Source of the DNA: Nemertoderma westbladi
Lineage: Eukaryota; Animalia; Xenacoelomorpha
Direction: 5' to 3'
NCBI GenBank assembly: GCA_032718475.1
Contig: JAUCBJ010002644.1
Span: 1 to 38,801, forward strand
Length of the DNA: 38,801 nt
Of the stretch, positions 7,036 to 33,474 are shown one piece after another. Made by a program: the position numbers and the translations under genes. The notes beneath the pieces were generated by a model that was not told the origin of the DNA, did no database searches, and was given only the letters and a program-made list of their open reading frames with translations. Numbering within the stretch: the first letter of the stretch is position 1; each line of letters starts with the position of its first letter.

Positions 7036-7049
7036 ATTTAATTTATACT

Positions 7050-7148: not shown

Positions 7149-7681
7149 CGTATATTTTTATTTTCCAAATTAAGAAAAAACATGAAATTAAACCATAGCA
7201 TTTTAAAAAAACAAATAAACAATGTGACAACAAAGTATAAAAAGATAATCAGGCAACAAGACCTGCCCCAACACCCATCTCGATAATAATAAATAATTAA
7301 ATACTAAATAAAGTATATGGTACCGTAACATATGCACTACTCTATAACAACCAGGTGTATAGTAATGATAAACGTCCGCCAACTGCGCTCTCCCTATAAA
7401 GTGGCTCGCCATTGTTTTTATTTTAAATATATAAACAGTTTACACTAATAATAGTATTCTAAGTTGGTAAAGTTTTATCTAATGATGAGAAATTATATAT
7501 ATTTTTGATTTTAAGACGTTTATATGACGTCATCCTATGATATTTGTACACATGATCTCTGAAGCAGATTGTAACATAATCTATTATCTAAGGATGGGTG
7601 TTATTATATACATATATTTATATTAGCCATATTGCCATATAATGTAAATTTATAATATGAAGATAACCATTTTTTCCTAAG

Positions 7682-10600
7682 AGTTAGCTAAGAAACGAAC
7701 CTTGTTTTCTTACAGTTAGCTAAGAAGCGAACCTTGTTTTCTTACAGTTAGCTAAGAAGCGAACCTTGTTTTCTTACAGTTAGCTAAGAAACGAACCTTG
7801 TTTTCTTACAGTTAGCTAAGAAACGAACCTTGTTTTCTTACAGTTAGCTAAGAAACGAACCTTGTTTTCTTACAGTTAGCTAAGAAGCGAACCTTGTTTT
7901 CTTACAGTTAGCTAAGAAACGAACCTTGTTTTCTTACAGTTAGCTAAGAAACGAACCTTGTTTTCTTACAGTTAGCTAAGAAGCGAACCTTGTTTTCTTA
8001 CAGTTAGCTAAGAAACGAACCTTGTTTTCTTACAGTTAGCTAAGAAACGAACCTTGTTTTCTTACAGTTAGCTAAGAAGTGAACCTTGTTTTCTTACAGT
8101 TATCTCAGAACGGAACCTTTTGTTCTTACAGTTAGCTAAGAAACGAACCTTGTTTTCTTAAAGTTATCTCAGAACGGAACCTTTTGTTCTTACAGTTAGC
8201 TAAGAAACGAACCTTGTTTTTTTACAGTTATCTCAGAACGGAACCTTTTGTTCTTACAGTTAGCTAAGAAACGAACCTTGTTTTCTTAAAGTTATCTCAG
8301 AACGGAACCTTTTGTTCTTACAGTTAGCTAAGAAACGAACCTTGTTTTCTTACAGTTATCTCAGAACGGAACCTTTTGTTCTTACAGTCAGCTAAGATGC
8401 GAACCTTGTTTTCTTACAGTTAGCTAAGAAGCGAACCTTGTTTTCTTACAGTTAGCTAAGAAACGAACCTTGTTTTCTTACAGTTATCTCAGAACGGAAC
8501 CTTTTGTTCTTACAGTTAGCTAAGAAACGAACCTTGTTTTCTTAAAGTTATCTCAGAACGGAACCTTTTGTTCTTACAGTTAGCTAAGAAACGAACCTTG
8601 TTTTTTTACAGTTATCTCAGAACGGAACCTTTTGTTCTTACAGTTAGCTAAGATGCGAACCTTGTTTTCTTACAGTTAGCTAAGAAGCGAACCTTGTTTT
8701 CTTACAGTTAGCTAAGAACCGAACCTTGTTTTCTTCCAGTTAGCTAAGAAACGAACCTTGTTTTCTTACAGTTAGCTAAGAAGCGAACCTTGTTTTCTTA
8801 CAGTTAGCTAAGAAACGAACCTTGTTTTCTTACAGTTAGCTAAGAAACGAACCTTGTTTTCTTACAGTTAACTAAGATGCGAACCTTGTTTTCTTACAGT
8901 TAGCTAAGAAGCGAACCTTGTTATATTACAGTTAGCTAAGAAACGAACATTATTTTCTTACAGTTAGCTAAGAAACGAACCTTGTTTTCTTACAGTTAGC
9001 TAAGAAACGAACCTTGTTTTCTTACAGTTAGCTAAGAAACGAACCTTGTTTTCTTACAGTTAGCTAAGATGCGAACCTTGTTTTCTTACAGTTATCTCAG
9101 AACGGAACCTTTTGTTCTTACAGTTAGCTAAGAAGCGAACCTTGTTTTCTTACAGTTAGCTAAGAAGCGAACCTTGTTTTCTTACAGTTAGGTAAGATGC
9201 GAACATTGTTTTTTTACTGTTATCTCAGAACGGAACCTTTTGTTCTTACAGTTAGCTAAGAAGCGAACCTTGTTTTCTTACAGTTATCTCAGAACGGAAC
9301 CTTTTGTTCTTACAGTTAGCTAAGAAGCGAACCTTGTTTTCTTACAGTTATCTCAGAACGGAAGCTTTGGTTCTTACAGTTAGCTAAGAAGCGAACCTTG
9401 TTTTTTACAGTTATTTCAGAGCGGAACCTTTTGTTCTTACAGTTAGCTAAGATGCGAACATTGTTTTCTTACAGTTATCTCAGAACGGAACCTTTTGTTC
9501 TTACAGTTAGCTAAGATGCAAACATTGTTTTCTCACAGTTATCTCAAAACGGAACCTTTTGTTCTTACAGTTAGCTAAGAAGCGAACCTTGTTTTCTTAC
9601 AGTTAGCTAAGATGCGAACATTGTTTTTTTACTGTTATCTCAGAACAGAACCTTTTGTTCTTACAGTTAGCTAAGAAGCGAACCTTGTTTTCTTACAGTT
9701 AGCTAAGAAACGAACCTTGTTTTCTTCCAGTTAGCTAAGAAACGAACCTTGTTTTCTTACAGTTAGCTAAGAAGCGAACCTTGTTTTCTTACAGTTAGCT
9801 AAGAAACAAACCTTGTTTTCTTACAGTTAGCTAAGAAACGAACCTTGTTTTCTTACAGTTAGCTAAGATGCGAACCTTGTTTTCTTACAGTTAGCTAAGA
9901 AGCGAACCTTGTTTTATTACAGTTAGCTAAGAAACGAACATTGTTTCTTACAGTTAGCTAAGAAACGAACCTTGTTTTCTTACAGTTAGCTAAGAAACGA
10001 ACCTTGTTTTCTTACAGTTAGCTAAGAAACGAACCTTGTTTTCTTACAGTTAGCTAAGATGCGAACCTTGTTTTCTTACAGTTATCTCAGAACGGAACCT
10101 TTTGTTCTTACAGTTAGCTAAGATGCGAACATTGTTTTCTTACAGTTATCTCAAAACGGAACCTTTTGCTCTTACAGTTAGCTAAGAAGCGAACCTTGTT
10201 TTCTTACAGTTAGCTAAGAAACGAACCTTGTTTTCTTACAGTTAGCTAAGATGCGAACATTGTTTTTTTACTGTTATCTCAGAACGGAACCTTTTGTTCT
10301 TACAGTTAGCTAAGAAGCGAACCTTGTTTTCTTACAGTTATCTCAGAACGGAACCTTTTGTTCTTACAGTTAGCAAAGAAGCGAACCTTGTTTTCTTACA
10401 GTTATCTCAGAACGGAAGCTTTGGTTCTTACAGTTAGCTAAGAAGCGAACCTTGTTTTTTACAGTTATCTCAGAACGGAACCTTTTGTTCTTACAGTTAG
10501 CTAAGATGCGAACATTGTTTTCTTACAGTTATCTCAGAACGGAACCTTTTGTTCTTACAGTTAGCTAAGATGCAAACATTGTTTTCTTACAGTTATCTCA

Positions 10601-13600
10601 AAACGGAACCTTTTGTTCTTACAGTTAGCTAAGAAGCGAACCTTGTTTTCTTACAGTTAGCTAAGATGCGAACATTGTTTTTTTACTGTTATCTCAGAAC
10701 GGAAGCTTTGGTTCTTACAGTTAGCTAAGAAGCGAACCTTGTTTTCTGACAGTTATCTCAGAACGGAACCTTTTGTTCTTACAGTTAGCTAAGATGCGAA
10801 CATTGTTTTCTTACAGTTATCTCAGAACGGAACCTTTTTTTCTTACAGTTAGCTAAGATGCGAACCTTGTTTTCTTACAGTTATCTCAGAACGGAACCTT
10901 TTGTTCTTACAGTTAGCTAAGATGTGAACATTGTTTTCTTACAGTTACCTCAGAACGGAACCTTTTGTTCTTACAGATAGCTAAGAAGCTCACATTGTTT
11001 TTTCAGAACGGAACCTTTTGTTCTTACAGTTAGCTAAGAAGCAACCTTGTTTTCTTACAGTTATCTCAGAACGGAACCTTTTGTTCTTAACAGTTAGCTA
11101 AGAAGCGAACCTTGTTTTCTTACAGTTATCTTAGAATTGAACCTTTTGCTCTTACAGTTAGCTAAGAAGCAACCTTGTTTTCTTACAGTCATCTCAGAAC
11201 GGAATCTGTTGTTCTTACAGTTAGCTAAGAAGCGAACCTTGTTTTCTTACAGTTATCTCAGAACGGAACCTGTTGTTCTTACAGTTAACTGAGAAGCAAC
11301 CTTGTTTTCTTACAGTTATCTCAGAACGGAACCTTTTGTTCTTACAGTTAGCAAAGAAGCGAACCTTGTTTTCTTACAGTTATCTTAGAACGGAACCTTT
11401 TGTTATAACAGTTAGCTAAGAAGCAACCTTGTTTTCTTACAGTTATCTCAGAACGGAACCTGTCGTTCTTACAGTTAGCTAAGAAGCAACCTTGTTTTCT
11501 TACAGTTATCTCAGAACGGAACCTTTTGTTCTTACAGTTAGCTAAGAAGCGAACCTTGTTTTCTTACAGTTATCTCAGAACGGAACCTTTTGTTCTTACA
11601 GTTAGCTAAGAAGCAACCTTGTTTTCTTACAGTTATCTCCGAACGGAACCTGTTGTTTTTACAGTTAGCTAAGAAGCGAACCTTGTTTTCTTACAGTTAT
11701 CTCAGAACGGAACCTTTTGTTCTTACAGTTAGCTAAGAAGCAACCTTGTTTTCTTACAGATATCTCAGAACGGAACCTTTTGTTCTTACAGTTAGCTAAG
11801 AAGCGAACCTTGTTTTCTTACAGTTATCTTAGAACGGAACCTTTTGTTCTTACAGTTAGCTAAGAAGCAACCTTGTTTTCTTACAGTTATCTCAGAACGG
11901 AACCTGTTGTTCTTACAGTTAGCTAAGAAGCGAACCTTGTTTTCTTACAGTTATCTCAGAACGGAACCTGTTGTTCTTACAGATAGCTAAGAAGCGAACA
12001 TTGTTTTTTTTCAGAACGGAACCTTTTGTTCCTACAGTTAGCTAAGAAGCAACCTTGTTTTCTTACAGTTATCTCAGAACGGAACCTTTTGTTCTTACAG
12101 TTAGCTAAGAAGCGAACCTTGTTTTCTTACAGTTATCTTAGAACGGAACCTTTTGTTCTTACAGTTAGCTAAGACTTGTTTTCTTACAGTTATCTCAGAA
12201 CGGAACCTGTTGTTCTTACAGTTAGCTAAGAAGCGAACCTTGTTTTCTTACAGTTATCTCAGAACTGAACCTGTTGTTCTTACAGATAGCTAAGAAGCGA
12301 ACCTTGTTTTTTCAGAACGGAACCTTTTGTTCTTACAGTTAGCTAAGAAACAACCTTGTTTTCTTACAGTTAGCTAAGATGCGAACCTTGTTTTCTTACA
12401 GTTATCTCAGAACGGAACCTTTTGTTCTTACAGTTGGCTAAGATGCGAACATTGTTTTCTTATAGTTATCTCAGAACGGAACCTTTTGTTCTTACAGTTA
12501 TCTAAGAAGCGAGCCTTGTTTTCTTACAGTTATCTTAGAACGGAACCTTTTGTTCTTACAGTTAGCTAAGAAGCAACCTTGTTTTCTTACAGTTCTCTCA
12601 GAACGGAACCTGTTGTTCTTACAGTTAGCTAAGAAGCAACCTTGTTTTCTTACAGTTATCTCAAAACGGAACCTTTTGTTCTTACAGTTAGCTAAGAAGC
12701 GAACCTTGTTTTCTTACAGTTCTCTTAGAACGGAACCTTGTGTTCTTACAGTTAGCTAAGAAGCAACCTTGTTTTCTTACAGTTATCTCAGAACGGAACC
12801 TTTTGTTCTTACAGTTAGCTAAGAAGCGAACCTTGTTTTCTTACAGTTATCTCAGAACGGAACCTTTTGTTCTTACAGTTAGCTAAGAAGCAACCTTGTT
12901 TTCTTACAGTTATCTCAGAACGGAACCTTTTGTTCTTACAGTTAGCTAAAAAGCGAACCTTGTTTTCTTACAGTTATCTCAGAACGGAACCTTTTGTTCT
13001 TACAGTTAGCTACGAAGCGAACCTTGTTTTCTTACAGTTATCTCAGAACGGAACCTTTTGTTCTTACAGTTAGCTAAGAAGCGAACCTTGTTTTCTTACA
13101 GTTAAATTAGAACGGAACCTTTTGTTCTTACAGTTAGCTAAGAAGCAACCTTGTTTTCTTACATTTATCTCAGAACGGAACCTGTTGTTCTTACAGTTAG
13201 TTAAGAAGCGATCCTTGTTTTCTTACAGTTATCTCAGAACGGAACCTGTTGTTCTTACAGTTAGCTAAGAAGCAACCTTGTTTTCTTACAGTTATCTCAG
13301 AACGGAACCTTTTGTTCTTACAGTTAGCTAAGAAGCGAACCTTGTTTTCTTACAGTTATCTTAGAACGGAACCTTTTGTTCTTACAGTTAGCTAAGACTT
13401 GTTTTCTTACAGTTATCTCAGAACGGAACCTGTCGTTCTTACAGTTAGCTAAGAAGCAACCTTGTTTTCTTACAGTTATCTCAGAACGGAACCTTTTGTT
13501 CTTACAGTTAGCTAAGAAGCGAACCTTGTTTTCTTACAGTTATCTCAGAACGGAACCTTTTGTTCTTACAGTTAGCTAAGAAGCAACCTTGTTTTCTTAC

Positions 13601-16600
13601 AGTTATCTCCGAACGGAACCTGTTGTTTTTACAGTTAGCTAAGAAGCGAACCTTGTTTTCTTACAGTTATCTCAGAACGGAACCTTTTGTTCTTACAGTT
13701 AGCTAAGAAGCAACCTTGTTTTCTTACAGATATCTCAGAACGGAACCTTTTGTTCTTACAGTTAGCTAAGAAGCGAACCTTGTTTTCTTACAGTTATCTT
13801 AGAACGGAACCTTTTGTTCTTACAGTTAGCTAAGAAGCAACCTTGTTTTCTTACAGTTATCTCAGAACGGAACCTGTTGTTCTTACAGTTAGCTAAGAAG
13901 CGAACCTTGTTTTCTTACAGTTATCTCAGAACGGAACCTGTTGTTCTTACAGATAGCTAAGAAGCGAACATTGTTTTTTTTCAGAACGGAACCTTTTGTT
14001 CCTACAGTTAGCTAAGAAGCAACCTTGTTTTCTTACAGTTATCTCAGAACGGAACCTTTTGTTCTTACAGTTAGCTAAGAAGCGAACCTTGTTTTCTTAC
14101 AGTTATCTTAGAACGGAACCTTTTGTTCTTAGAGTTAGCTAAGACTTGTTTTCTTACAGTTATCTCAGAACGGAACCTGTTGTTCTTACAGTTAGCTAAG
14201 AAGCGAACCTTGTTTTCTTACAGTTATCTCAGAACTGAACCTGTTGTTCTTACAGATAGCTAAGAAGCGAACCTTGTTTTTTCAGAACGGAACCTTTTGT
14301 TCTTACAGTTAGCTAAGAAACAACCTTGTTTTCTTACAGTTAGCTAAGATGCGAACCTTGTTTTCTTACAGTTATCTCAGAACGGAACCTTTTGTTCTTA
14401 CAGTTAGCTAAGATGCGAACATTGTTTTCTTATAGTTATCTCAGAACGGAACCTTTTGTTCTTACAGTTATCTAAGAAGCGAGCCTTGTTTTCTTACAGT
14501 TATCTTAGAACGGAACCTTTTGTTCTTACAGTTAGCTAAGAAGCAACCTTGTTTTCTTACAGTTCTCTCAGAACGGAACCTGTTGTTCTTACAGTTAGCT
14601 AAGAAGCAACCTTGTTTTCTTACAGTTATCTCAAAACGGAACCTTTTGTTCTTACAGTTAGCTAAGAAGCGAACCTTGTTTTCTTACAGTTCTCTTAGAA
14701 CGGAACCTTGTGTTCTTACAGTTAGCTAAGAAGCAACCTTGTTTTCTTACAGTTATCTCAGAACGGAACCTTTTGTTCTTACAGTTAGCTAAGAAGCGAA
14801 CCTTGTTTTCTTACAGTTATCTCAGAACGGAACCTTTTGTTCTTACAGTTAGCTAAGAAGCAACCTTGTTTTCTTACAGTTATCTCAGAACGGAACCTTT
14901 TGTTCTTACAGTTAGCTAAAAAGCGAACCTTGTTTTCTTACAGTTATCTCAGAACGGAACCTTTTGTTCTTACAGTTAGCTACGAAGCGAACCTTGTTTT
15001 CTTACAGTTATCTCAGAACGGAACCTTTTGTTCTTACAGTTAGCTAAGAAGCGAACCTTGTTTTCTTACAGTTAAATTAGAACGGAACCTTTTGTTCTTA
15101 CAGTTAGCTAAGAAGCAACCTTGTTTTCTTACATTTATCTCAGAACGGAACCTGTTGTTCTTACAGTTAGTTAAGAAGCGATCCTTGTTTTCTTACAGTT
15201 ATCTCAGAACGGAACCTGTTGTTCTTACAGTTAGCTAAGAAGCAACCTTGTTTTCTTACAGTTATCTCAGAACGGAACCTTTTGTTCTTACAGTTAGCTA
15301 AGAAGCGAACCTTGTTTTCTTACAGTTATCTTAGAACGGAACCTTTTGTTCTTACAGTTAGCTAAGACTTGTTTTCTTACAGTTATCTCAGAACGGAACC
15401 TGTTGTTCTTACAGTTAGCTAAGAAGCGAACCTTGTTTTCTTACAGTTATCTCAGAACTGAACCTGTTGTTCTTACAGATAGCTAAGAAGCGAACATTGT
15501 TTTTTCAGAACGGAACCTTTTGTTCTTACAGTTAGCTAAGAAGCAACCTTGTTTTCTTACAGTTATCTCAGAACGGAACCTTTTGTTCTTACAGTTATCT
15601 AAGAAGCGAGCCTTGTTTTCTTACAGTTATCTTAGAACGGAACCTTTTGTTCTTACAGTTAGCTAAGAAGCAACCTTGTTTTCTTACAGTTCTCTCAGAA
15701 CGGAACCTGTTGTTCTTACAGTTAGCTAAGAAGCAACCTTGTTTTCTTACAGTTATCTCAAAACGGAACCTTTTGTTCTTACAGTTAGCTAAGAAGCGAA
15801 CCTTGTTTTCTTACAGTTCTCTTAGAACGGAACCTTGTGTTCTTACAGTTAGCTAAGAAGCAACCTTGTTTTCTTACAGTTATCTCAGAACGGAACCTTT
15901 TGTTCTTACAGTTAGCTAAGAAGCGAACCTTGTTTTCTTACAGTTATCTCAGAACGGAACCTTTTGTTCTTACAGTTAGCTAAGAAGCAACCTTGTTTTC
16001 TTACAGTTATCTCAGAACGGAACCTTTTGTTCTTACAGTTTGCTAAGAAGCGAACCCTGTTTTCTTACAGTTATCTCAGAACGGAACCTTTTGTTCTTAC
16101 AGTTAGCTAAGAAGCGAACCTTGTTTTCTTACAGTTATCTCAGAACGGAAGCTTTGGTTCTTACAGTTAGCTAAGAAGCGAACCTTGTTTTTACAGTTAT
16201 CTCAGAACTGAACCTTTTGTTCTTACAGTTAGCTAAGATGCGAACATTGTTTTCTTACAGTTATCTCAGAACGGAACCTTTTGTTCTTACAGTTAGCTAA
16301 GATGCAAACATTGTTTTCTTACAGTTATCTCAAAACGGAACCTTTTGTTCTTACAGTTAGCTAAGAAGCGAACCTTGTTTTCTTACAGTTAGCTAAGATG
16401 CGAACATTGTTTTTTTACTGTTATCTCAGAACAGAACCTTTTGTTTTTACAGTTAGCTAAGAAGCGAACCTTGTTTTCTTACAGTTATCTCAGAACGGAA
16501 CCTTTTGTTCTTACAGTTAGCTAAGAAGCTAACCTTGTTTTCTTACAGTTATCTCAGAACGGAAGCTTTGGTTCTTACAGTTAGCTAAGAAGCGAACCTT

Positions 16601-19600
16601 GTTTTCTGACAGTTATCTCAGAACGGAACCTTTTGTTCTTACAGTTAGCTAAGATGCGAACATTGTTTTCTTACAGTTATCTCAGAACGGAACCTTTTGT
16701 TCTTACAGTTAGCTAAGATGCGAACCTTGTTTTCTTACAGTTATCTCAGAACGGAACCTTTTGTTCTTACAGTTAGCTAAGATGTGAACATTGTTTTCTT
16801 ACAGTTACTTCAGAACGGAACCTTTTGTTCTTACAGATAGCTAAGAAGCGAACATTGTTTTTTCAGAACGGAACCTTTTGTTCTTACAGTTAGCTAAGAA
16901 GCAACCTTGTTTTCTTACAGTTATCTCAGAACGGAACCTTTTGTTCTTACCAGTTAGCTAAGAAGCGAACCTTGTTTTCTTACAGTTATCTCAGAACGGA
17001 AGCTTTGGTTCTTACAGTTAGCTAAGAAGCGAACCTTGTTTTTTACAGTTATTTCAGAGCGGAACCTTTTGTTCTTACAGTTAGCTAAGATGCGAACATT
17101 GTTTTCTTACAGTTATCTCAGAACGGAACCTTTTGTTCTTACAGTTATCTAAGAAGCGAGCCTTGTTTTCTTACAGTTATCTTAGAACGGAACCTTTTGT
17201 TCTTACAGTTAGCTAAGAAGCAACCTTGTTTTCTTACAGTTCTCTCAGAACGGAACCTGTTGTTCTTACAGTTAGCTAAGAAGCAACCTTGTTTTCTTAC
17301 AGTTATCTCAAAACGGAACCTTTTGTTCTTACAGTTAGCTAAGAAGCGAACCTTGTTTTCTTACAGTTCTCTTAGAACGGAACCTTGTGTTCTTACAGTT
17401 AGCTAAGAAGCAACCTTGTTTTCTTACAGTTATCTCAGAACGGAACCTTTTGTTCTTACAGTTAGCTAAGAAGCGAACCTTGTTTTCTTACAGTTATCTC
17501 AGAACGGAACCTTTTGTTCTTACAGTTAGCTAAGAAGCAACCTTGTTTTCTTACAGTTATCTCAGAACGGAACCTGTTGTTCTTACAGTTAACTGAGAAG
17601 CAACCTTGTTTTCTTACAGTTATCTCAGAACGGAACCTTTTGTTCTTACAGTTAGCAAAGAAGCGAACCTTGTTTTCTTACAGTTATCTTAGAACGGAAC
17701 CTTTTGTTATAACAGTTAGCTAAGAAGCAACCTTGTTTTCTTACAGTTATCTCAGAACGGAACCTGTCGTTCTTACAGTTAGCTAAGAAGCAACCTTGTT
17801 TTCTTACAGTTATCTCAGAACGGAACCTTTTGTTCTTACAGTTAGCTAAGAAGCGAACCTTGTTTTCTTACAGTTATCTCAGAACGGAACCTTTTGTTCT
17901 TACAGTTAGCTAAGAAGCAACCTTGTTTTCTTACAGTTATCTCCGAACGGAACCTGTTGTTTTTACAGTTAGCTAAGAAGCGAACCTTGTTTTCTTACAG
18001 TTATCTCAGAACGGAACCTTTTGTTCTTACAGTTAGCTAAGAAGCAACCTTGTTTTCTTACAGTTATCTCAGAACGGAACCTTTTGTTCTTACAGTTAGC
18101 TAAGAAGCAACCTTGTTTTCTTACAGTTATCTCAGAACGGAACCTGTTGTTCTTACAGTTAGCTAAGAAGCGAACCTTGTTTTCTTACAGTTATCTCAGA
18201 ACGGAACCTGTTGTTCTTACAGATAGCTAAGAAGCGAACATTGTTTTTTTTCAGAACGGAACCTTTTGTTCCTACAGTTAGCTAAGAAGCAACCTTGTTT
18301 TCTTACAGTTATCTCAGAACGGAACCTTTTGTTCTTACAGTTAGCTAAGAAGCGAACCTTGTTTTCTTACAGTTATCTTAGAACAGAACCTTTTGTTCTT
18401 ACAGTTAGCTAAGACTTGTTTTCTTACAGTTATCTCAGAACGGAACCTGTTGTTCTTACAGTTAGCTAAGAAGCGAACCTTGTTTTCTTACAGTTATCTC
18501 AGAACTGAACCTGTTGTTCTTACAGATAGCTAAGAAGCGAACATTGTTTTTTCAGAACGGAACCTTTTGTTCTTACAGTTAGCTAAGAAACAACCTTGTT
18601 TTCTTACAGTTAGCTAAGATGCGAACCTTGTTTTCTTACAGTTATCTCAGAACGGAACCTTTTGTTCTTACAGTTAGCTAAGATGCGAACATTGTTTTCA
18701 TACAGTTATCTCAGAACGGAACCTTTTGTTCTTACAGTTATCTAAGAAGCGAGCCTTGTTTTCTTACAGTTATCTTAGAACGGAACCTTTTGTTCTTACA
18801 GTTAGCTAAGAAGCAACCTTGTTTTCTTACAGTTCTCTCAGAACGGAACCTGTTGTTCTTACAGTTAGCTAAGAAGCAACCTTGTTTTCTTACAGTTATC
18901 TCAAAACGGAACCTTTTGTTCTTACAGTTAGCTAAGAAGCGAACCTTGTTTTCTTACAGTTCTCTTAGAACGGAACCTTGTGTTCTTACAGTTAGCTAAG
19001 AAGCAACCTTGTTTTCTTACAGTTATCTCAGAACGGAACCTTTTGTTCTTACAGTTAGCTAAGAAGCGAACCTTGTTTTCTTACAGTTATCTCAGAACGG
19101 AACCTTTTGTTCTTACAGTTAGCTAAGAAGCAACCTTGTTTTCTTACAGTTATCTCAGAACGGAACCTTTTGTTCTTACAGTTAGCTAAAAAGCGAACCT
19201 TGTTTTCTTACAGTTATCTCAGAACGGAACCTTTTGTTCTTACAGTTAGCTACGAAGCGAACCTTGTTTTCTTACAGTTATCTCAGAACGGAACCTTTTG
19301 TTCTTACAGTTAGCTAAGAAGCGAACCTTGTTTTCTTACAGTTAAATTAGAACGGAACCTTTTGTTCTTACAGTTAGCTAAGAAGCAACCTTGTTTTCTT
19401 ACATTTATCTCAGAACGGAACCTGTTGTTCTTACAGTTAGTTAAGAAGCGATCCTTGTTTTCTTACAGTTATCTCAGAACGGAACCTGTTGTTCTTACAG
19501 TTAGCTAAGAAGCAACCTTGTTTTCTTACAGTTAAATTAGAACGGAACCTTTTGTTCTTACAGTTAGCTAAGAAGCAACCTTGTTTTCTTACATTTATCT

Positions 19601-22600
19601 CAGAACGGAACCTGTTGTTCTTACAGTTAGTTAAGAAGCGATCCTTGTTTTCTTACAGTTATCTCAGAACGGAACCTGTTGTTCTTACAGTTAGCTAAGA
19701 AGCAACCTTGTTTTCTTACAGTTATCTCAGAACGGAACCTTTTGTTCTTACAGTTAGCTAAGAAGCGAACCTTGTTTTCTTACAGTTATCTTAGAACGGA
19801 ACCTTTTGTTCTTACAGTTAGCTAAGACTTGTTTTCTTACAGTTATCTCAGAACGGAACCTGTTGTTCTTACAGTTAGCTAAGAAGCGAACCTTGTTTTC
19901 TTACAGTTATCTCAGAACTGAACCTGTTGTTCTTACAGATAGCTAAGAAGCGAACATTGTTTTTTCAGAACGGAACCTTTTGTTCTTACAGTTAGCTAAG
20001 AAGCAACCTTGTTTTCTTACAGTTATCTCAGAACGGAACCTTTTGTTCTTACAGTTATCTAAGAAGCGAGCCTTGTTTTCTTACAGTTATCTTAGAACGG
20101 AACCTTTTGTTCTTACAGTTAGCTAAGAAGCAACCTTGTTTTCTTACAGTTCTCTCAGAACGGAACCTGTTGTTCTTACAGTTAGCTAAGAAGCAACCTT
20201 GTTTTCTTACAGTTATCTCAAAACGGAACCTTTTGTTCTTACAGTTAGCTAAGAAGCGAACCTTGTTTTCTTACAGTTCTCTTAGAACGGAACCTTGTGT
20301 TCTTACAGTTAGCTAAGAAGCAACCTTGTTTTCTTACAGTTATCTCAGAACGGAACCTTTTGTTCTTACAGTTAGCTAAGAAGCGAACCTTGTTTTCTTA
20401 CAGTTATCTCAGAACGGAACCTTTTGTTCTTACAGTTAGCTAAGAAGCAACCTTGTTTTCTTACAGTTATCTCAGAACGGAACCTTTTGTTCTTACAGTT
20501 AGCTAAGAAGCGAACCCTGTTTTCTTACAGTTATCTCAGAACGGAACCTTTTGTTCTTACAGTTAGCTAAGAAGCGAACCTTGTTTTCTTACAGTTATCT
20601 CAGAACGGAAGCTTTGGTTCTTACAGTTAGCTAAGAAGCGAACCTTGTTTTTACAGTTATCTCAGAACTGAACCTTTTGTTCTTACAGTTAGCTAAGATG
20701 CGAACATTGTTTTCTTACAGTTATCTCAGAACGGAACCTTTTGTTCTTACAGTTAGCTAAGATGCAAACATTGTTTTCTTACAGTTATCTCAAAACGGAA
20801 CCTTTTGTTCTTACAGTTAGCTAAGAAGCGAACCTTGTTTTCTTACAGTTAGCTAAGATGCGAACATTGTTTTTTTACTGTTATCTCAGAACAGAACCTT
20901 TTGTTCTTACAGTTAGCTAAGAAGCGAACCTTGTTTTCTTACAGTTATCTCAGAACGGAACCTTTTGTTCTTACAGTTAGCTAAGAAGCTAACCTTGTTT
21001 TCTTACAGTTATCTCAGAACGGAAGCTTTGGTTCTTACAGTTAGCTAAGAAGCGAACCTTGTTTTCTGACAGTTATCTCAGAACGGAACCTTTTGTTCTT
21101 ACAGTTAGCTAAGATGCGAACATTGTTTTCTTACAGTTATCTCAGAACGGAACCTTTTGTTCTTACAGTTAGCTAAGATGCGAACCTTGTTTTCTTACAG
21201 TTATCTCAGAACGGAACCTTTTGTTCTTACAGTTAGCTAAGATGTGAACATTGTTTTCTTACAGTTACTTCAGAACGGAACCTTTTGTTCTTACAGATAG
21301 CTAAGAAGCGAACATTGTTTTTTCAGAACGGAACCTTTTGTTCTTACAGTTAGCTAAGAAGCAACCTTGTTTTCTTACAGTTATCTCAGAACGGAACCTT
21401 TTGTTCTTACCAGTTAGCTAAGAAGCGAACCTTGTTTTCTTACAGTTATCTCAGAACGGAAGCTTTGGTTCTTACAGTTAGCTAAGAAGCGAACCTTGTT
21501 TTTTACAGTTATTTCAGAGCGGAACCTTTTGTTCTTACAGTTAGCTAAGATGCGAACATTGTTTTCTTACAGTTATCTCAGAACGGAACCTTTTGTTCTT
21601 ACAGTTATCTAAGAAGCGAGCCTTGTTTTCTTACAGTTATCTTAGAACGGAACCTTTTGTTCTTACAGTTAGCTAAGAAGCAACCTTGTTTTCTTACAGT
21701 TCTCTCAGAACGGAACCTGTTGTTCTTACAGTTAGCTAAGAAGCAACCTTGTTTTCTTACAGTTATCTCAAAACGGAACCTTTTGTTCTTACAGTTAGCT
21801 AAGAAGCGAACCTTGTTTTCTTACAGTTCTCTTAGAACGGAACCTTGTGTTCTTACAGTTAGCTAAGAAGCAACCTTGTTTTCTTACAGTTATCTCAGAA
21901 CGGAACCTTTTGTTCTTACAGTTAGCTAAGAAGCGAACCTTGTTTTCTTACAGTTATCTCAGAACGGAACCTTTTGTTCTTACAGTTAGCTAAGAAGCAA
22001 CCTTGTTTTCTTACAGTTATCTCAGAACGGAACCTTTTGTTCTTACAGTTAGCTAAGAAGCGAACCTTGTTTTCTTACAGTTATCTCAGAACGGAACCTT
22101 TTGTTCTTACAGTTAGCTAAGAAGCGAACCTTGTTTTCTTACAGTTATCTCAGAACGGAACCTTTTGTTCTTACAGTTAGCTAAGAAGCAACCTTGTTTT
22201 CTTACAGTTATCTCAGAACGGAACCTTTTGTTCTTACAGTTAGCTAAAAAGCGAACCTTGTTTTCTTACAGTTATCTCAGAACGGAACCTTTTGTTCTTA
22301 CAGTTAGCTACGAAGCGAACCTTGTTTTCTTACAGTTATCTCAGAACGGAACCTTTTGTTCTTACAGTTAGCTAAGAAGCGAACCTTGTTTTCTTACAGT
22401 TAAATTAGAACGGAACCTTTTGTTCTTACAGTTAGCTAAGAAGCAACCTTGTTTTCTTACATTTATCTCAGAACGGAACCTGTTGTTCTTACAGTTAGTT
22501 AAGAAGCGATCCTTGTTTTCTTACAGTTATCTCAGAACGGAACCTGTTGTTCTTACAGTTAGCTAAGAAGCAACCTTGTTTTCTTACAGTTAAATTAGAA

Positions 22601-25600
22601 CGGAACCTTTTGTTCTTACAGTTAGCTAAGAAGCAACCTTGTTTTCTTACATTTATCTCAGAACGGAACCTGTTGTTCTTACAGTTAGTTAAGAAGCGAT
22701 CCTTGTTTTCTTACAGTTATCTCAGAACGGAACCTGTTGTTCTTACAGTTAGCTAAGAAGCAACCTTGTTTTCTTACAGTTATCTCAGAACGGAACCTTT
22801 TGTTCTTACAGTTAGCTAAGAAGCGAACCTTGTTTTCTTACAGTTATCTTAGAACGGAACCTTTTGTTCTTACAGTTAGCTAAGACTTGTTTTCTTACAG
22901 TTATCTCAGAACGGAACCTGTTGTTCTTACAGTTAGCTAAGAAGCGAACCTTGTTTTCTTACAGTTATCTCAGAACTGAACCTGTTGTTCTTACAGATAG
23001 CTAAGAAGCGAACATTGTTTTTTCAGAACGGAACCTTTTGTTCTTACAGTTAGCTAAGAAGCAACCTTGTTTTCTTACAGTTATCTCAGAACGGAACCTT
23101 TTGTTCTTACAGTTATCTAAGAAGCGAGCCTTGTTTTCTTACAGTTATCTTAGAACGGAACCTTTTGTTCTTACAGTTAGCTAAGAAGCAACCTTGTTTT
23201 CTTACAGTTCTCTCAGAACGGAACCTGTTGTTCTTACAGTTAGCTAAGAAGCAACCTTGTTTTCTTACAGTTATCTCAAAACGGAACCTTTTGTTCTTAC
23301 AGTTAGCTAAGAAGCGAACCTTGTTTTCTTACAGTTCTCTTAGAACGGAACCTTGTGTTCTTACAGTTAGCTAAGAAGCAACCTTGTTTTCTTACAGTTA
23401 TCTCAGAACGGAACCTTTTGTTCTTACAGTTAGCTAAGAAGCGAACCTTGTTTTCTTACAGTTATCTCAGAACGGAACCTTTTGTTCTTACAGTTAGCTA
23501 AGAAGCAACCTTGTTTTCTTACAGTTATCTCAGAACGGAACCTTTTGTTCTTACAGTTAGCTAAGAAGCGAACCCTGTTTTCTTACAGTTATCTCAGAAC
23601 GGAACCTTTTGTACTTACAGTTAGCTAAGAAGCGAACCTTGTTTTCTTACAGTTATCTCAGAACGGAAGCTTTGGTTCTTACAGTTAGCTAAGAAGCGAA
23701 CCTTGTTTTTACAGTTATCTCAGAACTGAACCTTTTGTTCTTACAGTTAGCTAAGATGCGAACATTGTTTTCTTACAGTTATCTCAGAACGGAACCTTTT
23801 GTTCTTACAGTTAGCTAAGATGCAAACATTGTTTTCTTACAGTTATCTCAAAACGGAACCTTTTGTTCTTACAGTTAGCTAAGAAGCGAACCTTGTTTTC
23901 TTACAGTTAGCTAAGATGCGAACATTGTTTTTTTACTGTTATCTCAGAACAGAACCTTTTGTTCTTACAGTTAGCTAAGAAGCGAACCTTGTTTTCTTAC
24001 AGTTATCTCAGAACGGAACCTTTTGTTCTTACAGTTAGCTAAGAAGCTAACCTTGTTTTCTTACAGTTATCTCAGAACGGAAGCTTTGGTTCTTACAGTT
24101 AGCTAAGAAGCGAACCTTGTTTTCTGACAGTTATCTCAGAACGGAACCTTTTGTTCTTACAGTTAGCTAAGATGCGAACATTGTTTTCTTACAGTTATCT
24201 CAGAACGGAACCTTTTGTTCTTACAGTTAGCTAAGATGCGAACCTTGTTTTCTTACAGTTATCTCAGAACGGAACCTTTTGTTCTTACAGTTAGCTAAGA
24301 TGTGAACATTGTTTTCTTACAGTTACTTCAGAACGGAACCTTTTGTTCTTACAGATAGCTAAGAAGCGAACATTGTTTTTTCAGAACGGAACCTTTTGTT
24401 CTTACAGTTAGCTAAGAAGCAACCTTGTTTTCTTACAGTTATCTCAGAACGGAACCTTTTGTTCTTACCAGTTAGCTAAGAAGCGAACCTTGTTTTCTTA
24501 CAGTTATCTCAGAACGGAAGCTTTGGTTCTTACAGTTAGCTAAGAAGCGAACCTTGTTTTTTACAGTTATTTCAGAGCGGAACCTTTTGTTCTTACAGTT
24601 AGCTAAGATGCGAACATTGTTTTCTTACAGTTATCTCAGAACGGAACCTTTTGTTCTTACAGTTATCTAAGAAGCGAGCCTTGTTTTCTTACAGTTATCT
24701 TAGAACGGAACCTTTTGTTCTTACAGTTAGCTAAGAAGCAACCTTGTTTTCTTACAGTTCTCTCAGAACGGAACCTGTTGTTCTTACAGTTAGCTAAGAA
24801 GCAACCTTGTTTTCTTACAGTTATCTCAAAACGGAACCTTTTGTTCTTACAGTTAGCTAAGAAGCGAACCTTGTTTTCTTACAGTTCTCTTAGAACGGAA
24901 CCTTGTGTTCTTACAGTTAGCTAAGAAGCAACCTTGTTTTCTTACAGTTATCTCAGAACGGAACCTTTTGTTCTTACAGTTAGCTAAGAAGCGAACCTTG
25001 TTTTCTTACAGTTATCTCAGAACGGAACCTTTTGTTCTTACAGTTAGCTAAGAAGCAACCTTGTTTTCTTACAGTTATCTCAGAACGGAACCTTTTGTTC
25101 TTACAGTTAGCTAAGAAGCGAACCTTGTTTTCTTACAGTTATCTCAGAACGGAACCTTTTGTTCTTACAGTTAGCTACGAAGCGAACCTTGTTTTCTTAC
25201 AGTTATCTCAGAACGGAACCTTTTGTTCTTACAGTTAGCTAAGAAGCGAACCTTGTTTTCTTACAGTTAAATTAGAACGGAACCTTTTGTTCTTACAGTT
25301 AGCTAAGAAGCAACCTTGTTTTCTTACAGTTATCTCAGAACGGAACCTGTCGTTCTTACAGTTAGCTAAGAAGCAACCTTGTTTTCTTACAGTTATCTCA
25401 GAACGGAACCTTTTGTTCTTACAGTTAGCTAAGAAGCGAACCTTGTTTTCTTACAGTTATCTCAGAACGGAACCTTTTGTTCTTACAGTTAGCTAAGAAG
25501 CAACCTTGTTTTCTTACAGTTATCTCCGAACGGAACCTGTTGTTTTTACAGTTAGCTAAGAAGCGAACCTTGTTTTCTTACAGTTATCTCAGAACGGAAC

Positions 25601-28600
25601 CTTTTGTTCTTACAGTTAGCTAAGAAGCAACCTTGTTTTCTTACAGTTATCTCAGAACGGAACCTTTTGTTCTTACAGTTAGCTAAGAAGCAACCTTGTT
25701 TTCTTACAGTTATCTCAGAACGGAACCTGTTGTTCTTACAGTTAGCTAAGAAGCGAACCTTGTTTTCTTACAGTTATCTCAGAACGGAACCTGTTGTTCT
25801 TACAGATAGCTAAGAAGCGAACATTGTTTTTTTTCAGAACGGAACCTTTTGTTCCTACAGTTAGCTAAGAAGCAACCTTGTTTTCTTACAGTTATCTCAG
25901 AACGGAACCTTTTGTTCTTACAGTTAGCTAAGAAGCGAACCTTGTTTTCTTACAGTTATCTTAGAACGGAACCTTTTGTTCTTACAGTTAGCTAAGACTT
26001 GTTTTCTTACAGTTATCTCAGAACGGAACCTGTTGTTCTTACAGTTAGCTAAGAAGCGAACCTTGTTTTCTTACAGTTATCTCAGAACTGAACCTGTTGT
26101 TCTTACAGATAGCTAAGAAGCGAACATTGTTTTTTCAGAACGGAACCTTTTGTTCTTACAGTTAGCTAAGAAACAACCTTGTTTTCTTACAGTTAGCTAA
26201 GATGCGAACCTTGTTTTCTTACAGTTATCTCAGAACGGAACCTTTTGTTCTTACAGTTAGCTAAGATGCGAACATTGTTTTCATACAGTTATCTCAGAAC
26301 GGAACCTTTTGTTCTTACAGTTATCTAAGAAGCGAGCCTTGTTTTCTTACAGTTATCTTAGAACGGAACCTTTTGTTCTTACAGTTAGCTAAGAAGCAAC
26401 CTTGTTTTCTTACAGTTCTCTCAGAACGGAACCTGTTGTTCTTACAGTTAGCTAAGGAGCAACCTTGTTTTCTTACAGTTATCTCAAAACGGAACCTTTT
26501 GTTCTTACAGTTAGCTAAGAAGCGAACCTTGTTTTCTTACAGTTCTCTTAGAACGGAACCTTGTGTTCTTACAGTTAGCTAAGAAGCAACCTTGTTTTCT
26601 TACAGTTATCTCAGAACGGAACCTTTTGTTCTTACAGTTAGCTAAGAAGCGAACCTTGTTTTCTTACAGTTATCTCAGAACGGAACCTTTTGTTCTTACA
26701 GTTAGCTAAGAAGCAACCTTGTTTTCTTACAGTTATCTCAGAACGGAACCTTTTGTTCTTACAGTTAGCTAAAAAGCGAACCTTGTTTTCTTACAGTTAT
26801 CTCAGAACGGAACCTTTTGTTCTTACAGTTAGCTACGAAGCGAACCTTGTTTTCTTACAGTTATCTCAGAACGGAACCTTTTGTTCTTACAGTTAGCTAA
26901 GAAGCGAACCTTGTTTTCTTACAGTTAAATTAGAACGGAACCTTTTGTTCTTACAGTTAGCTAAGAAGCAACCTTGTTTTCTTACATTTATCTCAGAACG
27001 GAACCTGTTGTTCTTACAGTTAGTTAAGAAGCGATCCTTGTTTTCTTACAGTTATCTCAGAACGGAACCTGTTGTTCTTACAGTTAGCTAAGAAGCAACC
27101 TTGTTTTCTTACAGTTAAATTAGAACGGAACCTTTTGTTCTTACAGTTAGCTAAGAAGCAACCTTGTTTTCTTACATTTATCTCAGAACGGAACCTGTTG
27201 TTCTTACAGTTAGTTAAGAAGCGATCCTTGTTTTCTTACAGTTATCTCAGAACGGAACCTGTTGTTCTTACAGTTAGCTAAGAAGCAACCTTGTTTTCTT
27301 ACAGTTATCTCAGAACGGAACCTTTTGTTCTTACAGTTAGCTAAGAAGCGAACCTTGTTTTCTTACAGTTATCTTAGAACGGAACCTTTTGTTCTTACAG
27401 TTAGCTAAGACTTGTTTTCTTACAGTTATCTCAGAACGGAACCTGTTGTTCTTACAGTTAGCTAAGAAGCGAACCTTGTTTTCTTACAGTTATCTCAGAA
27501 CTGAACCTGTTGTTCTTACAGATAGCTAAGAAGCGAACATTGTTTTTTCAGAACGGAACCTTTTGTTCTTACAGTTAGCTAAGAAGCAACCTTGTTTTCT
27601 TACAGTTATCTCAGAACGGAACCTTTTGTTCTTACAGTTATCTAAGAAGCGAGCCTTGTTTTCTTACAGTTATCTTAGAACGGAACCTTTTGTTCTTACA
27701 GTTAGCTAAGAAGCAACCTTGTTTTCTTACAGTTCTCTCAGAACGGAACCTGTTGTTCTTACAGTTAGCTAAGAAGCAACCTTGTTTTCTTACAGTTATC
27801 TCAAAACGGAACCTTTTGTTCTTACAGTTAGCTAAGAAGCGAACCTTGTTTTCTTACAGTTCTCTTAGAACGGAACCTTGTGTTCTTACAGTTAGCTAAG
27901 AAGCAACCTTGTTTTCTTACAGTTATCTCAGAACGGAACCTTTTGTTCTTACAGTTAGCTAAGAAGCGAACCTTGTTTTCTTACAGTTATCTCAGAACGG
28001 AACCTTTTGTTCTTACAGTTAGCTAAGAAGCAACCTTGTTTTCTTACAGTTATCTCAGAACGGAACCTTTTGTTCTTACAGTTAGCTAAGAAGCGAACCC
28101 TGTTTTCTTACAGTTATCTCAGAACGGAACCTTTTGTTCTTACAGTTAGCTAAGAAGCGAACCTTGTTTTCTTACAGTTATCTCAGAACGGAAGCTTTGG
28201 TTCTTACAGTTAGCTAAGAAGCGAACCTTGTTTTTACAGTTATCTCAGAACTGAACCTTTTGTTCTTACAGTTAGCTAAGATGCGAACATTGTTTTCTTA
28301 CAGTTATCTCAGAACGGAACCTTTTGTTCTTACAGTTAGCTAAGATGCAAACATTGTTTTCTTACAGTTATCTCAAAACGGAACCTTTTGTTCTTACAGT
28401 TAGCTAAGAAGCGAACCTTGTTTTCTTACAGTTAGCTAAGATGCGAACATTGTTTTTTTACTGTTATCTCAGAACAGAACCTTTTGTTCTTACAGTTAGC
28501 TAAGAAGCGAACCTTGTTTTCTTACAGTTATCTCAGAACGGAACCTTTTGTTCTTACAGTTAGCTAAGAAGCTAACCTTGTTTTCTTACAGTTATCTCAG

Positions 28601-31600
28601 AACGGAAGCTTTGGTTCTTACAGTTAGCTAAGAAGCGAACCTTGTTTTCTGACAGTTATCTCAGAACGGAACCTTTTGTTCTTACAGTTAGCTAAGATGC
28701 GAACATTGTTTTCTTACAGTTATCTCAGAACGGAACCTTTTGTTCTTACAGTTAGCTAAGATGCGAACCTTGTTTTCTTACAGTTATCTCAGAACGGAAC
28801 CTTTTGTTCTTACAGTTAGCTAAGATGTGAACATTGTTTTCTTACAGTTACTTCAGAACGGAACCTTTTGTTCTTACAGATAGCTAAGAAGCGAACATTG
28901 TTTTTTCAGAACGGAACCTTTTGTTCTTACAGTTAGCTAAGAAGCAACCTTGTTTTCTTACAGTTATCTCAGAACGGAACCTTTTGTTCTTACCAGTTAG
29001 CTAAGAAGCGAACCTTGTTTTCTTACAGTTATCTCAGAACGGAAGCTTTGGTTCTTACAGTTAGCTAAGAAGCGAACCTTGTTTTTTACAGTTATTTCAG
29101 AGCGGAACCTTTTGTTCTTACAGTTAGCTAAGATGCGAACATTGTTTTCTTACAGTTATCTCAGAACGGAACCTTTTGTTCTTACAGTTATCTAAGAAGC
29201 GAGCCTTGTTTTCTTACAGTTATCTTAGAACGGAACCTTTTGTTCTTACAGTTAGCTAAGAAGCAACCTTGTTTTCTTACAGTTCTCTCAGAACGGAACC
29301 TGTTGTTCTTACAGTTAGCTAAGAAGCAACCTTGTTTTCTTACAGTTATCTCAAAACGGAACCTTTTGTTCTTACAGTTAGCTAAGAAGCGAACCTTGTT
29401 TTCTTACAGTTCTCTTAGAACGGAACCTTGTGTTCTTACAGTTAGCTAAGAAGCAACCTTGTTTTCTTACAGTTATCTCAGAACGGAACCTTTTGTTCTT
29501 ACAGTTAGCTAAGAAGCGAACCTTGTTTTCTTACAGTTATCTCAGAACGGAACCTTTTGTTCTTACAGTTAGCTAAGAAGCAACCTTGTTTTCTTACAGT
29601 TATCTCAGAACGGAACCTTTTGTTCTTACAGTTAGCTAAGAAGCGAACCTTGTTTTCTTACAGTTATCTCAGAACGGAACCTTTTGTTCTTACAGTTAGC
29701 TACGAAGCGAACCTTGTTTTCTTACAGTTATCTCAGAACGGAACCTTTTGTTCTTACAGTTAGCTAAGAAGCGAACCTTGTTTTCTTACAGTTAAATTAG
29801 AACGGAACCTTTTGTTCTTACAGTTAGCTAAGAAGCAACCTTGTTTTCTTACAGTTATCTCAGAACGGAACCTGTTGTTCTTACAGTTAGTTAAGAAGCG
29901 ATCCTTGTTTTCTTACAGTTATCTCAGAACGGAACCTGTTGTTCTTACAGTTAGCTAAGAAGCAACCTTGTTTTCTTACAGTTATCTCAGAACGGAACCT
30001 TTTGTTTTTACAGTTAGCTAAGAAGCGAACCTTGTTTTCTTACAGTTCTCTTAGAACGGAACCTTTTGTTCTTACAGTTAGCTAAGAAGCAACCTTGTTT
30101 TCTTACATTTATCTCAGAACGGAACCTGTTGTTCTTACAGTTAGCTAAGAAGCGAACCTTGTTTTCTTACAGTTATCTCAGAACGGAACCTTTTGTTCTT
30201 ACAGTTAGCTAAGAAGCAACCTTATTTTCTTACAGTTATCTCAGAACGGAACCTGTTGTTCTTACAGTTAGCTAAGAAGCGAACCTTGTTTTCTTACAGT
30301 TACTTCAGAACGGAACCTTTTGTTCTTACAGATAGCTAAGAAGCGAACATTGTTTTTTCAGAACGGAACCTTTTGTTCTTACAGTTAGCTAAGAAGCAAC
30401 CTTGTTTTCTTACAGTTATCTCAGAACGGAACCTTTTGTTATTACCAGTTAGCTAAGAAGCGAACCTTGTTTTCTTACAGTTATCTCAGAACGGAAGCTT
30501 TGGTTCTTACAGTTAGCTAAGAAGCGAACCTTGTTTTTTACAGTTATTTCAGAGCGGAACCTTTTGTTCTTACAGTTAGCTAAGATGCGAACATTGTTTT
30601 CTTACAGTTATCTCAGAACGGAACCTTTTGTTCTTACAGTTATCTAAGAAGCGAGCCTTGTTTTCTTACAGTTATCTTAGAACGGAACCTTTTGTTCTTA
30701 CAGTTAGCTAAGAAGCAACCTTGTTTTCTTACAGTTCTCTCAGAACGGAACCTGTTGTTCTTACAGTTAGCTAAGAAGCAACCTTGTTTTCTTACAGTTA
30801 TCTCAAAACGGAACCTTTTGTTCTTACAGTTAGCTAAGAAGCGAACCTTGTTTTCTTACAGTTCTCTTAGAACGGAACCTTGTGTTCTTACAGTTAGCTA
30901 AGAAGCAACCTTGTTTTCTTACAGTTATCTCAGAACGGAACCTTTTGTTCTTACAGTTAGCTAAGAAGCGAACCTTGTTTTCTTACAGTTATCTCAGAAC
31001 GGAACCTTTTGTTCTTACAGTTATCTAAGAAGCAACCTTGTTTTCTTACAGTTATCTCAGAACGGAACCTTTTGTTCTTACAGTTAGCTAAGAAGCGAAC
31101 CTTGTTTTCTTACAGTTATCTCAGAACGGAACCTTTTGTTCTTACAGTTAGCTACGAAGCGAACCTTGTTTTCTTACAGTTATCTCAGAACGGAACCTTT
31201 TGTTCTTACAGTTAGCTAAGAAGCGAACCTTGTTTTCTTACAGTTAAATTAGAACGGAACCTTTTGTTCTTACAGTTAGCTAAGAAGCAACCTTGTTTTC
31301 TTACAGTTATCTCAGAACGGAACCTGTTGTTCTTACAGTTAGTTAAGAAGCGATCCTTGTTTTCTTACAGTTATCTCAGAACGGAACCTGTTGTTCTTAC
31401 AGTTAGCTAAGAAGCAACCTTGTTTTCTTACAGTTATCTCAGAACGGAACCTTTTGTTTTTACAGTTAGCTAAGAAGCGAACCTTGTTTTCTTACAGTTC
31501 TCTTAGAACGGAACCTTTTGTTCTTACAGTTAGCTAAGAAGCAACCTTGTTTTCTTACATTTATCTCAGAACGGAACCTGTTGTTCTTACAGTTAGCTAA

Positions 31601-33143
31601 GAAGCGAACCTTGTTTTCTTACAGTTATCTCAGAACGGAACCTTTTGTTCTTACAGTTAGCTAAGAAGCAACCTTATTTTCTTACAGTTATCTCAGAACG
31701 GAACCTGTTGTTCTTACAGTTAGCTAAGAAGCGAACCTTGTTTTCTTACAGTTATCTCAGAACGGAACCTTTTGTTCTTACAGTTAGCTAAGAAGCAACC
31801 TTGTTTTCTTACAGTTATCTCAGAACGGAACCTTTTGTTCTTACAGTTAGCTAAGAAGCGAACCTTGTTGTCTTACAGTTATCTCAGAACGGAACCTTTT
31901 GTTCTTACAGTTAGCTAAGAAGCGAACCTTGTTTTCTTACAGTTATCTCAGAACGGAACCTTTTGTTCTTACAGTTAGCTAAGAAGCAACCTTGTTTTCT
32001 TACAGTTATCTCAGAACGGAACCTTTTGTTCTTACAGTTAGCTAAGAAGCAACCTTGTTTTCTTACAGTTATCTCAGAACGGAACCTTTTGTTCTTACAG
32101 TTAGCTAAGAAGCGAACCTTGTTTTCTTACAGTTATCTCAGAACGGAACCTTTTGTTCTTACAATTAGCTAAGAAGCGAACCTTGTTTTCTTACAGTTAC
32201 CTCAGAACTAGGCTCTCGGGGCAAATACCACACCCTGGTTTGCCATTCCACAGGGTGGGTGTCGCAATGGAGTCAGATATGAGGCCCATCACCCATATCT
32301 ACTCTGGCGTACATGACCCACCATTGGCTGTTGCAGCTCATCTGCTGGGTCATGCTCTGTACCCTTGCTGCCAGGTGCAGGTCGCAGTGAAGTGCCCTCA
32401 GAGTGGACATGAGAACACTCTACTCCTAACCAGCCATTGGTAGATCACCATCTGCCTGGTCAGGCCATATACCCCTGCAGCCAAGTATATGGGTCCTTAA
32501 TCCAGGACCAAGGGCGTCCTTATCCCAGAACGAAGGGGGTCCTAGTTACAGGACCAGATTTGCCCTAGTAAGAGGGTCTATGCAGCTACAGGTGGCACCT
32601 CCTTTATGCTGCATGGAGGTGGCAAGTTTTCTTGATCAATGACCTAGAATACCTGACCTGACCTTCGGATCAGAACGGAACCTTTTGTTCTTACAGTTAG
32701 CTAAGAAGCGAACCTTGTTTTCTTACAGTTATCTCAGAACGGAACCTTTTGTTCTTACAGTTAGCTAAGAAGCGAACCTTGTTTTCTTACAGTTATCTCA
32801 GAACGGAACCATTAATTCTTACAGTTAGCTAAGAGGCGAACCTTGTTTTCTTACAGTTACCTCAGAACGGAACCATTTGTTCTTACAGTTAGCTAAGAGG
32901 CGAACCTTGTTTTCTTACAGTTATCTCAGAACGGAACCTTTTGTTCTTACAGTTAGCTAAGAATCGAACCTTGTTTTCTTACAGTTTTCTCAGAACGGAA
33001 CCTGTTGTTCTTACAGTTAGCTAAGAAGCGAACCTTGTTTTCTTACAGTTATCTCAGAACGGAACCTTTTGTTCTTACAGTTAGCTAAGAAGCAACCTTG
33101 TTTTCTTACAGTTACCTCAGAACGGAACCTTTTGTTCTTACAG
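7682..33143 (+). repeat. ~25.5-kb intronic satellite of 31-32 bp units: A = TTAGCTAAGAA(G/A)C(G)AACCTTGTTTTCTTACAG, B = TTATCTCAGAACGGAACCTTTTGTTCTTACAG, mostly as a 63/64-bp AB dimer with nested higher-order repeats
   Basis: Continuous tandem units without spacers, about 790 estimated from length divided by unit size. Interrupted once at 32209-32669. The last unit ends at the CAG acceptor (33141-33143) of a coding exon. Confidence 0.98.
32209..32669. mobile_element. 461-bp GC-richer insertion, probable short or truncated non-LTR retroposon
   Basis: It splits a B unit and is flanked by the 7-bp direct repeat TCAGAAC (32202-32208 and 32670-32676). An ACCTG tandem lies near the right end (32651-32664). 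No TIRs and no credible ORF. Confidence 0.75.
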
Positions 33144-33386
33144 TTAGCTAGGGACGGAACCTCAGCCTGGACCTACGAACCTACGAGGCAGTTATGGTAT
33201 TACCATAGCAACCCCGGCATGGCACCCCAGCTCAACTTTAACAACGCCAACGTCTCCCAAGCGGTTCTGGACGCCCTTGTCTACTGGGTTAACGAAGTCG
33301 GGGTCGATGGAGTGGTTATACCCAACGCTGATTACCTCACCGTGGACACCAGCTTCAAGGATGAACCTGGGAACAACGGTACAGGG
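33144..33386 (+). CDS. Internal exon of a GH13 alpha-glucosidase/SLC3 (rBAT/4F2hc) heavy-chain-like gene: LARDGTSAWTY...DEPGNNGTG
   Basis: TTCTTACAG acceptor and GTAGGT donor at 33387; 243 nt, phase 0/0. The translation matches maltase/rBAT motifs G.SAW.Y...RQ.WYYH, P.LNF.N..V, W...GVDG and DEP. Confidence 0.9.
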
Positions 33387-33413
33387 GTAGGTAGATATTA
33401 CTTATTTTTTAGT

Positions 33414-33474
33414 TTGGTAACCGGGCGCACTTAGCTTGGAACCCGGGCGCACTTAGCTTGGTACCCGGGCGCAC
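33414..33474. repeat. 22-bp tandem repeat x~2.7 (CCGGGCGCACTTAGCTTGG[A/T]AC)
   Basis: CCGGGCGCAC starts at 33421, 33443 and 33465. Confidence 0.9.

Follow-up and report, generated by a model that had tools for sequence, protein, structure and literature searches.

Minisatellites that repeat a splice junction have been described in amphioxus under the name of mirages. Canestro 2002 is reportedly the reference cited for them, and somatic instability is said to have been reported for the mirage of Adh3. Mirages are listed for Adh3, for the globins BflGb6 and BflGb9, for troponin C and for PGBD5, and the acceptor-side example in BflGb6 has 6 and 3 units on two haplotypes with normal splicing (PMC3087553, PMC3902484). 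Human donor minisatellites are given for F7 IVS7, CBS IVS13, the interferon-inducible gene 6-16, lamin B2 and PDGF (PMC1557585). The 25-bp VNTR in intron 18 of human ABCA7 has alleles from 315 to at least 9711 bp and an effect of length on splicing (PMC5954066). Tandem repeats that alter human gene structure are also covered in PMC2812944.

The stretch analysed here (the window) comprises 38,801 nucleotides of a Nemertoderma westbladi contig. An earlier note on it, made from the letters alone, had described a 25-kb satellite of about 790 units derived from the acceptor junction of a gene, and had left it undecided whether such arrays were known. The array was recovered by unit parsing (793 units), and its kind is already on record, as mirages (PMC3087553, PMC3902484) and as human splice-site minisatellites (PMC1557585, PMC5954066). 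It is likely to be an unusually large case of the known mirage type rather than a new system, with its size and its likely length polymorphism standing out. Like amphioxus mirages, it has tandem copies of an intron 3' end joined to an exon 5' start (as in BflGb6), intact splice signals and edge units that lie outside homogenisation. Amphioxus mirages combine normal splicing with allelic length variation; here a normal joint was seen in one run only (X4), and length variation is likely. Unlike BflGb6, with its 3-6 units of 150-160 bp, the present array counts about 790 units, each of 32 bp, across 25 kb; its A and B units form dimers, it contains higher-order repeats at the kilobase scale, and an element has inserted into it. 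The ABCA7 VNTR likewise carries a splice site in each unit, and its alleles run from hundreds of bases to many kilobases; however, that repeat lies on the donor side, reaches about 390 units at the longest cited allele and has a measured splicing effect, whereas the present one lies on the acceptor side with roughly twice the unit count. The human F7/CBS-type minisatellites also have a first unit that spans the exon boundary and an authentic site that is used, sometimes together with the nearest one or two pseudo-sites. Theirs are donor-side arrays of 5-25 units, and transcription reaches the authentic site before its copies; here the order is reversed, and 25 kb of copies precede the authentic site. 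In the part of the literature that was searched, no array on the acceptor side reached several hundred units.

The 793 units of about 32 nt occupy positions 7684-33143, and TRF called the array as 7682-32208 and 32670-33162 (Table 1). Each unit corresponds to positions -14 to +18 of the acceptor, with 14 intron bases followed by a 14/18 match to the first 18 nt of the exon. Two unit types, A and B, alternate strictly for the most part after an A-rich first 2.5 kb (to about 10.2 kb), and the units of each type are about 97% identical to their own consensus. The B unit contains an exact copy of the real 14-nt acceptor, and A and B each agree with the start of the exon at 14 of its first 18 bases. 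The A unit quoted in the earlier note does have this 14/18 match, but it is not the typical A: it occurs only 28 times, always within 7684-10210, and the commonest A, also at 14/18, differs from it at one base. Among the 586 parsed 32-nt units, 174 are only 4 bases away from the junction. Up to 8 mismatches to the 32-nt junction were found at 736 array positions, and the best non-array match in the window has 12-13 mismatches in 32, which excludes chance resemblance. On the left, the array ends in a degenerate unit; the three blocks beyond this edge unit scored at chance level for the unit. The array had been taken as unbroken, but a 461-bp insertion interrupts it, and duplications at the kilobase scale had also been overlooked. 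The insertion is likely a mobile element; a second copy in the window and a match in Rfam were looked for, and neither was found. Only 14 repeat AGs remain between it and the real acceptor AG, directly upstream of the latter.

Table 1. Features of the acceptor-junction array and its host gene (positions in the window)
Feature	Position	Strand	Evidence and remarks
Degenerate A-like edge unit, left array boundary	7650-7683	+	score 11 vs shuffle mean 3.2; 0/1000 shuffles reach the score
Distal array, about 778 units of 32 nt	7684-32208	+	TRF, unit parsing
Sole donor-like site of the distal array, GT at 9192	9189-9197	+	7/9 to consensus; candidate pseudo-exon end with 8 upstream decoys
461-bp non-repeat insertion inside a B unit, 7-bp target-site duplication	32209-32669	.	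sequence; 6 weak donor-like GTs
Proximal array, 15 acceptor AGs, the last (33142-33143) being the real acceptor	32670-33143	+	TRF, parsing; X4 joint for the real one
Coding exon, 81 aa, GH13, SLC3/rBAT-like	33144-33386	+	PF00128, E 1.3e-8; donor GT at 33387; exonic half of the unit = first 18 nt of this exon
Next coding exon	33721-33999	+	GT..AG joints at both ends in run X4
Third coding exon, 137 aa plus one base	34308-34719	+	PF00128, E 1e-5; acceptor joint in X4; donor from sequence only

The window's part of the host gene consists of three exons and a portion of one intron of more than 33 kb, whose upstream exon end lies outside the window. The donor GT, the frame LARDGTSAW and the GH13 homology proposed earlier all agree with the Pfam match and with a joint from 33386 to 33721 in run X4. 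The first exon matched solved rBAT chains at E about 1e-5 and is 44% identical to an amphioxus rBAT-like protein, P0043. The GH13 catalytic motif is degenerate, with VVIPNA in place of the enzymes' FRIDA, and, since the catalytic aspartate motif is missing, the gene likely encodes an SLC3 heavy chain, a subunit of amino-acid transporters. The N-terminal transmembrane SLC3A2_N domain is present in the homologues P0043 and P0102; the upstream exons of the host gene fall outside the window. A close orthologue was not found by HMMER (119 weak matches, none below 1e-10), word-based protein searches gave nothing at E<=0.001 among 368 and 106 candidates, and the Atlas matches were bacterial alpha-amylase clusters only.

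Run X4, labelled 'DNA?', was treated as RNA on account of its joints. Its sequence is 99% identical to the window, its depth on the exons is 1,350-6,200, and GT..AG joints span both downstream introns. A 981-nt X4 contig departs from the window at 33143 into sequence coding for ...EPPNNW. The last AG (33143) is thus the real acceptor, and a normal joint is made there in X4, as had been predicted from the PPNNW|LARDG reading. X4 comes from another sample, so that this joint speaks for its own array allele and not for the 790-unit one, and contigs drop rare forms. Blanks in coverage (X4 over 33050-33108 and X5 over the left units) were not counted against decoy use. The array adjoins the splice site that is used, and the exon contigs of the three DNA runs X1-X3 end inside the last unit. 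Separately, contigs of X2 and X3, both from sample S2, cover 33318-33374 plus 33720-33955 as a diverged, intron-less exon copy with 28 differences in 235 nt, a joint from 33374 to 33720 and an apparent internal deletion; it is likely a processed pseudogene or a paralogue.

Of the 770 acceptor-like sites, defined as YAG with at least 8 pyrimidines in 10, 767 are repeat decoys, 2 lie within the insertion and one is the real acceptor. The real 14-nt acceptor recurs identically in 244 upstream copies. In 203 upstream copies, all transcribed before the true site, the identity extends from -23 to +7; neither first-come scanning nor proximity on the intron side can therefore pick the true site, whereas exon definition can. 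By a crude consensus match, 1 of the 1604 GTs in the distal array scored at least 5.5/9 as a donor, and a donor within 300 nt was lacking for 750 of the 770 acceptor-like sites. The true AG lies 243 nt from the donor at 33387, and the next AG upstream lies 275 nt from it. A stop is reached from 768 of the 769 upstream sites, within 30 codons for 614 of them. The view of about 790 equivalent rival sites therefore probably does not hold, since nearly all lack a donor-like partner in reach, and this same scarcity makes exon definition, suggested earlier as the chooser, likely.

Because the intron exceeds 33 kb, exon definition should apply. The exon would be recognised across its own length, so that only the last AG pairs with the strong donor at 33387, and the real rivals for this donor would be the true AG and the next one or two. 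Mis-spliced products, nearly all with early stops, would be removed by nonsense-mediated decay. Given the two counts above, of sites that lack a donor and of sites that lead to stops, the decoys are likely neutralised by exon definition plus decay. For human data, PMC9225289 describes a proximity rule centred on the exon, together with a preference for smaller exons. Two other schemes were rejected. RNA structure does not set the real site apart as the main chooser would: its local unpairedness was 0.36, against 0.32 +/- 0.07 in 150 sampled decoys of the 767, 23 of which were more open. An array of recursive-splicing ratchet points does not fit units that read AG|TT and a distal array with one donor-like site.

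Selection against decoy AGs was looked for in the parsed units and none was seen. The AG is unchanged in 247 of 247 A units and in nearly all of 339 B units, counts from a parser that favours intact tails, and such a lack of erosion is expected if the decoys cost little. Intact decoys could also serve a length-dependent cis-regulator, in which long alleles would lower or shift expression through the nearest decoys, through pseudo-exons that use the donor at 9192 or those of the insertion, through U2AF loading or through added transcription time. The second decoy upstream, at 33080, is in frame in the window's allele because one unit is 31 nt, and its use would add 63 nt and 21 aa without a stop; array length apparently differs between samples, and the length of the ABCA7 VNTR alters splicing (PMC5954066). 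Against such a role, the only mRNA-like contig at the junction takes the true AG, most decoys have no donor, the in-frame 31-nt unit was not seen in S2 contigs, and published mirages are reported not to disturb splicing (PMC3087553, PMC3902484). We therefore consider regulation by array length unlikely, and an array tolerated without function remains our preferred reading.

The length of the array was assessed by read depth. The left-flank contig of X1 ends at 7711 and the exon contigs of X1-X3 start at 33121-33123; a graph simulated from the window stops at 7711 and 33121, where the X1 contigs also end (7711 and 33123). Two X1 repeat contigs with unique assignment gave 21.5 (1995.5 depth over 92.6 expected copies) and 22.9 (192.4 over 8.4) per copy. 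These are the clean cases of six listed; three are ambiguous, each with a candidate at 21-25 per copy, and one is a misfit (12.2 depth for 8.3 expected copies). The X1 flank contigs, identical to the window, have a depth of 37-49, which we read as two haplotypes. X1 thus holds the assembled array at roughly the dose of one haplotype, and this depth per copy argues both against inflation in assembly and against a genome-wide satellite. The local occurrence expected earlier is in this way supported as far as read depth shows. An exact 26-nt unit pattern was looked for in metagenome contigs and had 0 matches there, although such contigs test an animal sequence only weakly. X1 is identical to the window along the left flank and could be the individual that was assembled, so it checks the assembly and is not an independent allele.

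The distal array contains higher-order duplications at offsets of 1452, 1550, 1970, 3058, 4460, 4525 and 7583. Exact duplications of 0.5-3.2 kb span 18,614 of the 25,460 array bases, and they imply either very recent block amplification or assembly error. It is quite improbable that the array is real but its 25-kb length was inflated by false duplications or fused haplotypes. The extent of copying would suit such an error, with 13,726 of the 25,460 bases forming exact copies, at least 500 nt long, of an earlier stretch and a longest exact internal pair of 3245 nt. However, a 59-nt word that occurs 8 times only by way of the duplications has an X1 depth of 192, or about 8-10 haplotype depths. 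The offsets are also nested, none being half of the array, although two half-length alleles fused in assembly, or equal sharing between two haplotypes, would also fit. On the reading of a genuine long allele, growth would have proceeded by unequal exchange of blocks of 1.4-7.6 kb, plus one mobile-element insertion.

Samples appear to differ in array length. Summed repeat depth was 17,000-19,500 in X1, 350-415 in X2 and 1,300-1,480 in X3, with an exon-contig depth of 16-21 throughout, but such sums do not measure copy number: when the same array was simulated, the ratio came out at 139-3101 according to the minimum length set, and X2 and X3 differ about 3-fold although both are of sample S2. 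In S2 the repeat adjoins the left flank, where an X2 contig runs to 7715, and in X2 and X3 it adjoins the exon; the 31-nt A variant common in the window was not seen in the contigs of this sample. These data suggest, as a rough estimate and only a hint, that the S2 array has tens of units, far fewer than the window. Array length likely varies greatly among alleles. Two neighbouring features differ as well. A 22-bp tandem repeat just past the donor (33409-33474) has 3 copies in the window and one fewer in S2. The stretch 6220-7036 has very high-copy element ends (summed depth >250,000), and about 816 bp is skipped in S2 contigs; it is likely a polymorphic insertion.

Elsewhere in the array's intron, a 17-bp satellite occupies 3257-3530 (16 copies) and 4266-5917 (97 copies), and the stretches after both blocks are near duplicates by eye. 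Its unit holds CTAAC on the sense strand, which resembles a branch point; this likeness is probably due to chance. At 3019-3230, a tRNA-like head is followed by a SINE-like body, for which no Rfam match was found. A broken non-LTR retroelement (35270-38320; RVT_1, E 8.7e-20) lies between 38-nt direct repeats 2000 nt apart and, by eye, sits inside another element that has inverted ends and subterminal repeats of 12 bp.

The position of the intron bears on the origin of the array. Residue 5 of the exon aligns to residue 260 of a 685-aa rBAT chain, so that residue 1 corresponds to 256, the chain numbering being assumed to be that of the full human protein. The human SLC3A1 variant c.766-2A>G is named in PMC10345071. 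An acceptor at the first base of codon 256 (c.766) would place the human intron at the same position, and a shared position makes it likely that the junction predates the array. The W-to-W spacing and G5/W9 are kept in all 6 proteins of the alignment, with a single gap column as the exception. The host intron is thus likely to be ancient, judged by alignment, and the repeat would most likely derive from the junction rather than the junction from the repeat, so that the proposed amplification of the gene's own acceptor is supported by intron position and residue spacing. It is highly improbable that a satellite or transposon repeat that already existed inserted into the intron and provided the acceptor together with the first six codons, as the identity of the acceptor to the B-unit tail might suggest, for the intron position is held in common with human SLC3A1, the residue spacing is conserved and the read depth does not allow for many further copies at other sites. 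In the amplification that we favour, a short duplication over the acceptor would have diverged into A and B units, and the edge copies would have escaped homogenisation.

Collectively, the locus is most probably a tandem array of about 790 copies of 32 nt, likely amplified from the acceptor junction of an SLC3/rBAT-like gene as a mirage minisatellite and likely tolerated without function. It offers an extreme natural test of 3' splice-site choice. The depth data hint that long and short alleles may occur together in heterozygotes; if they do, the cost of hundreds of unpaired acceptors could be tested directly. A more tentative, rather doubtful possibility is that the largest acceptor-side junction repeat so far segregates as tens versus about 790 units within one species, and that the long allele measurably changes the splicing or expression of a highly expressed gene. 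If true, this would provide a natural dose series on how the spliceosome passes over 25 kb of perfect acceptors that are made ahead of the true one during transcription.
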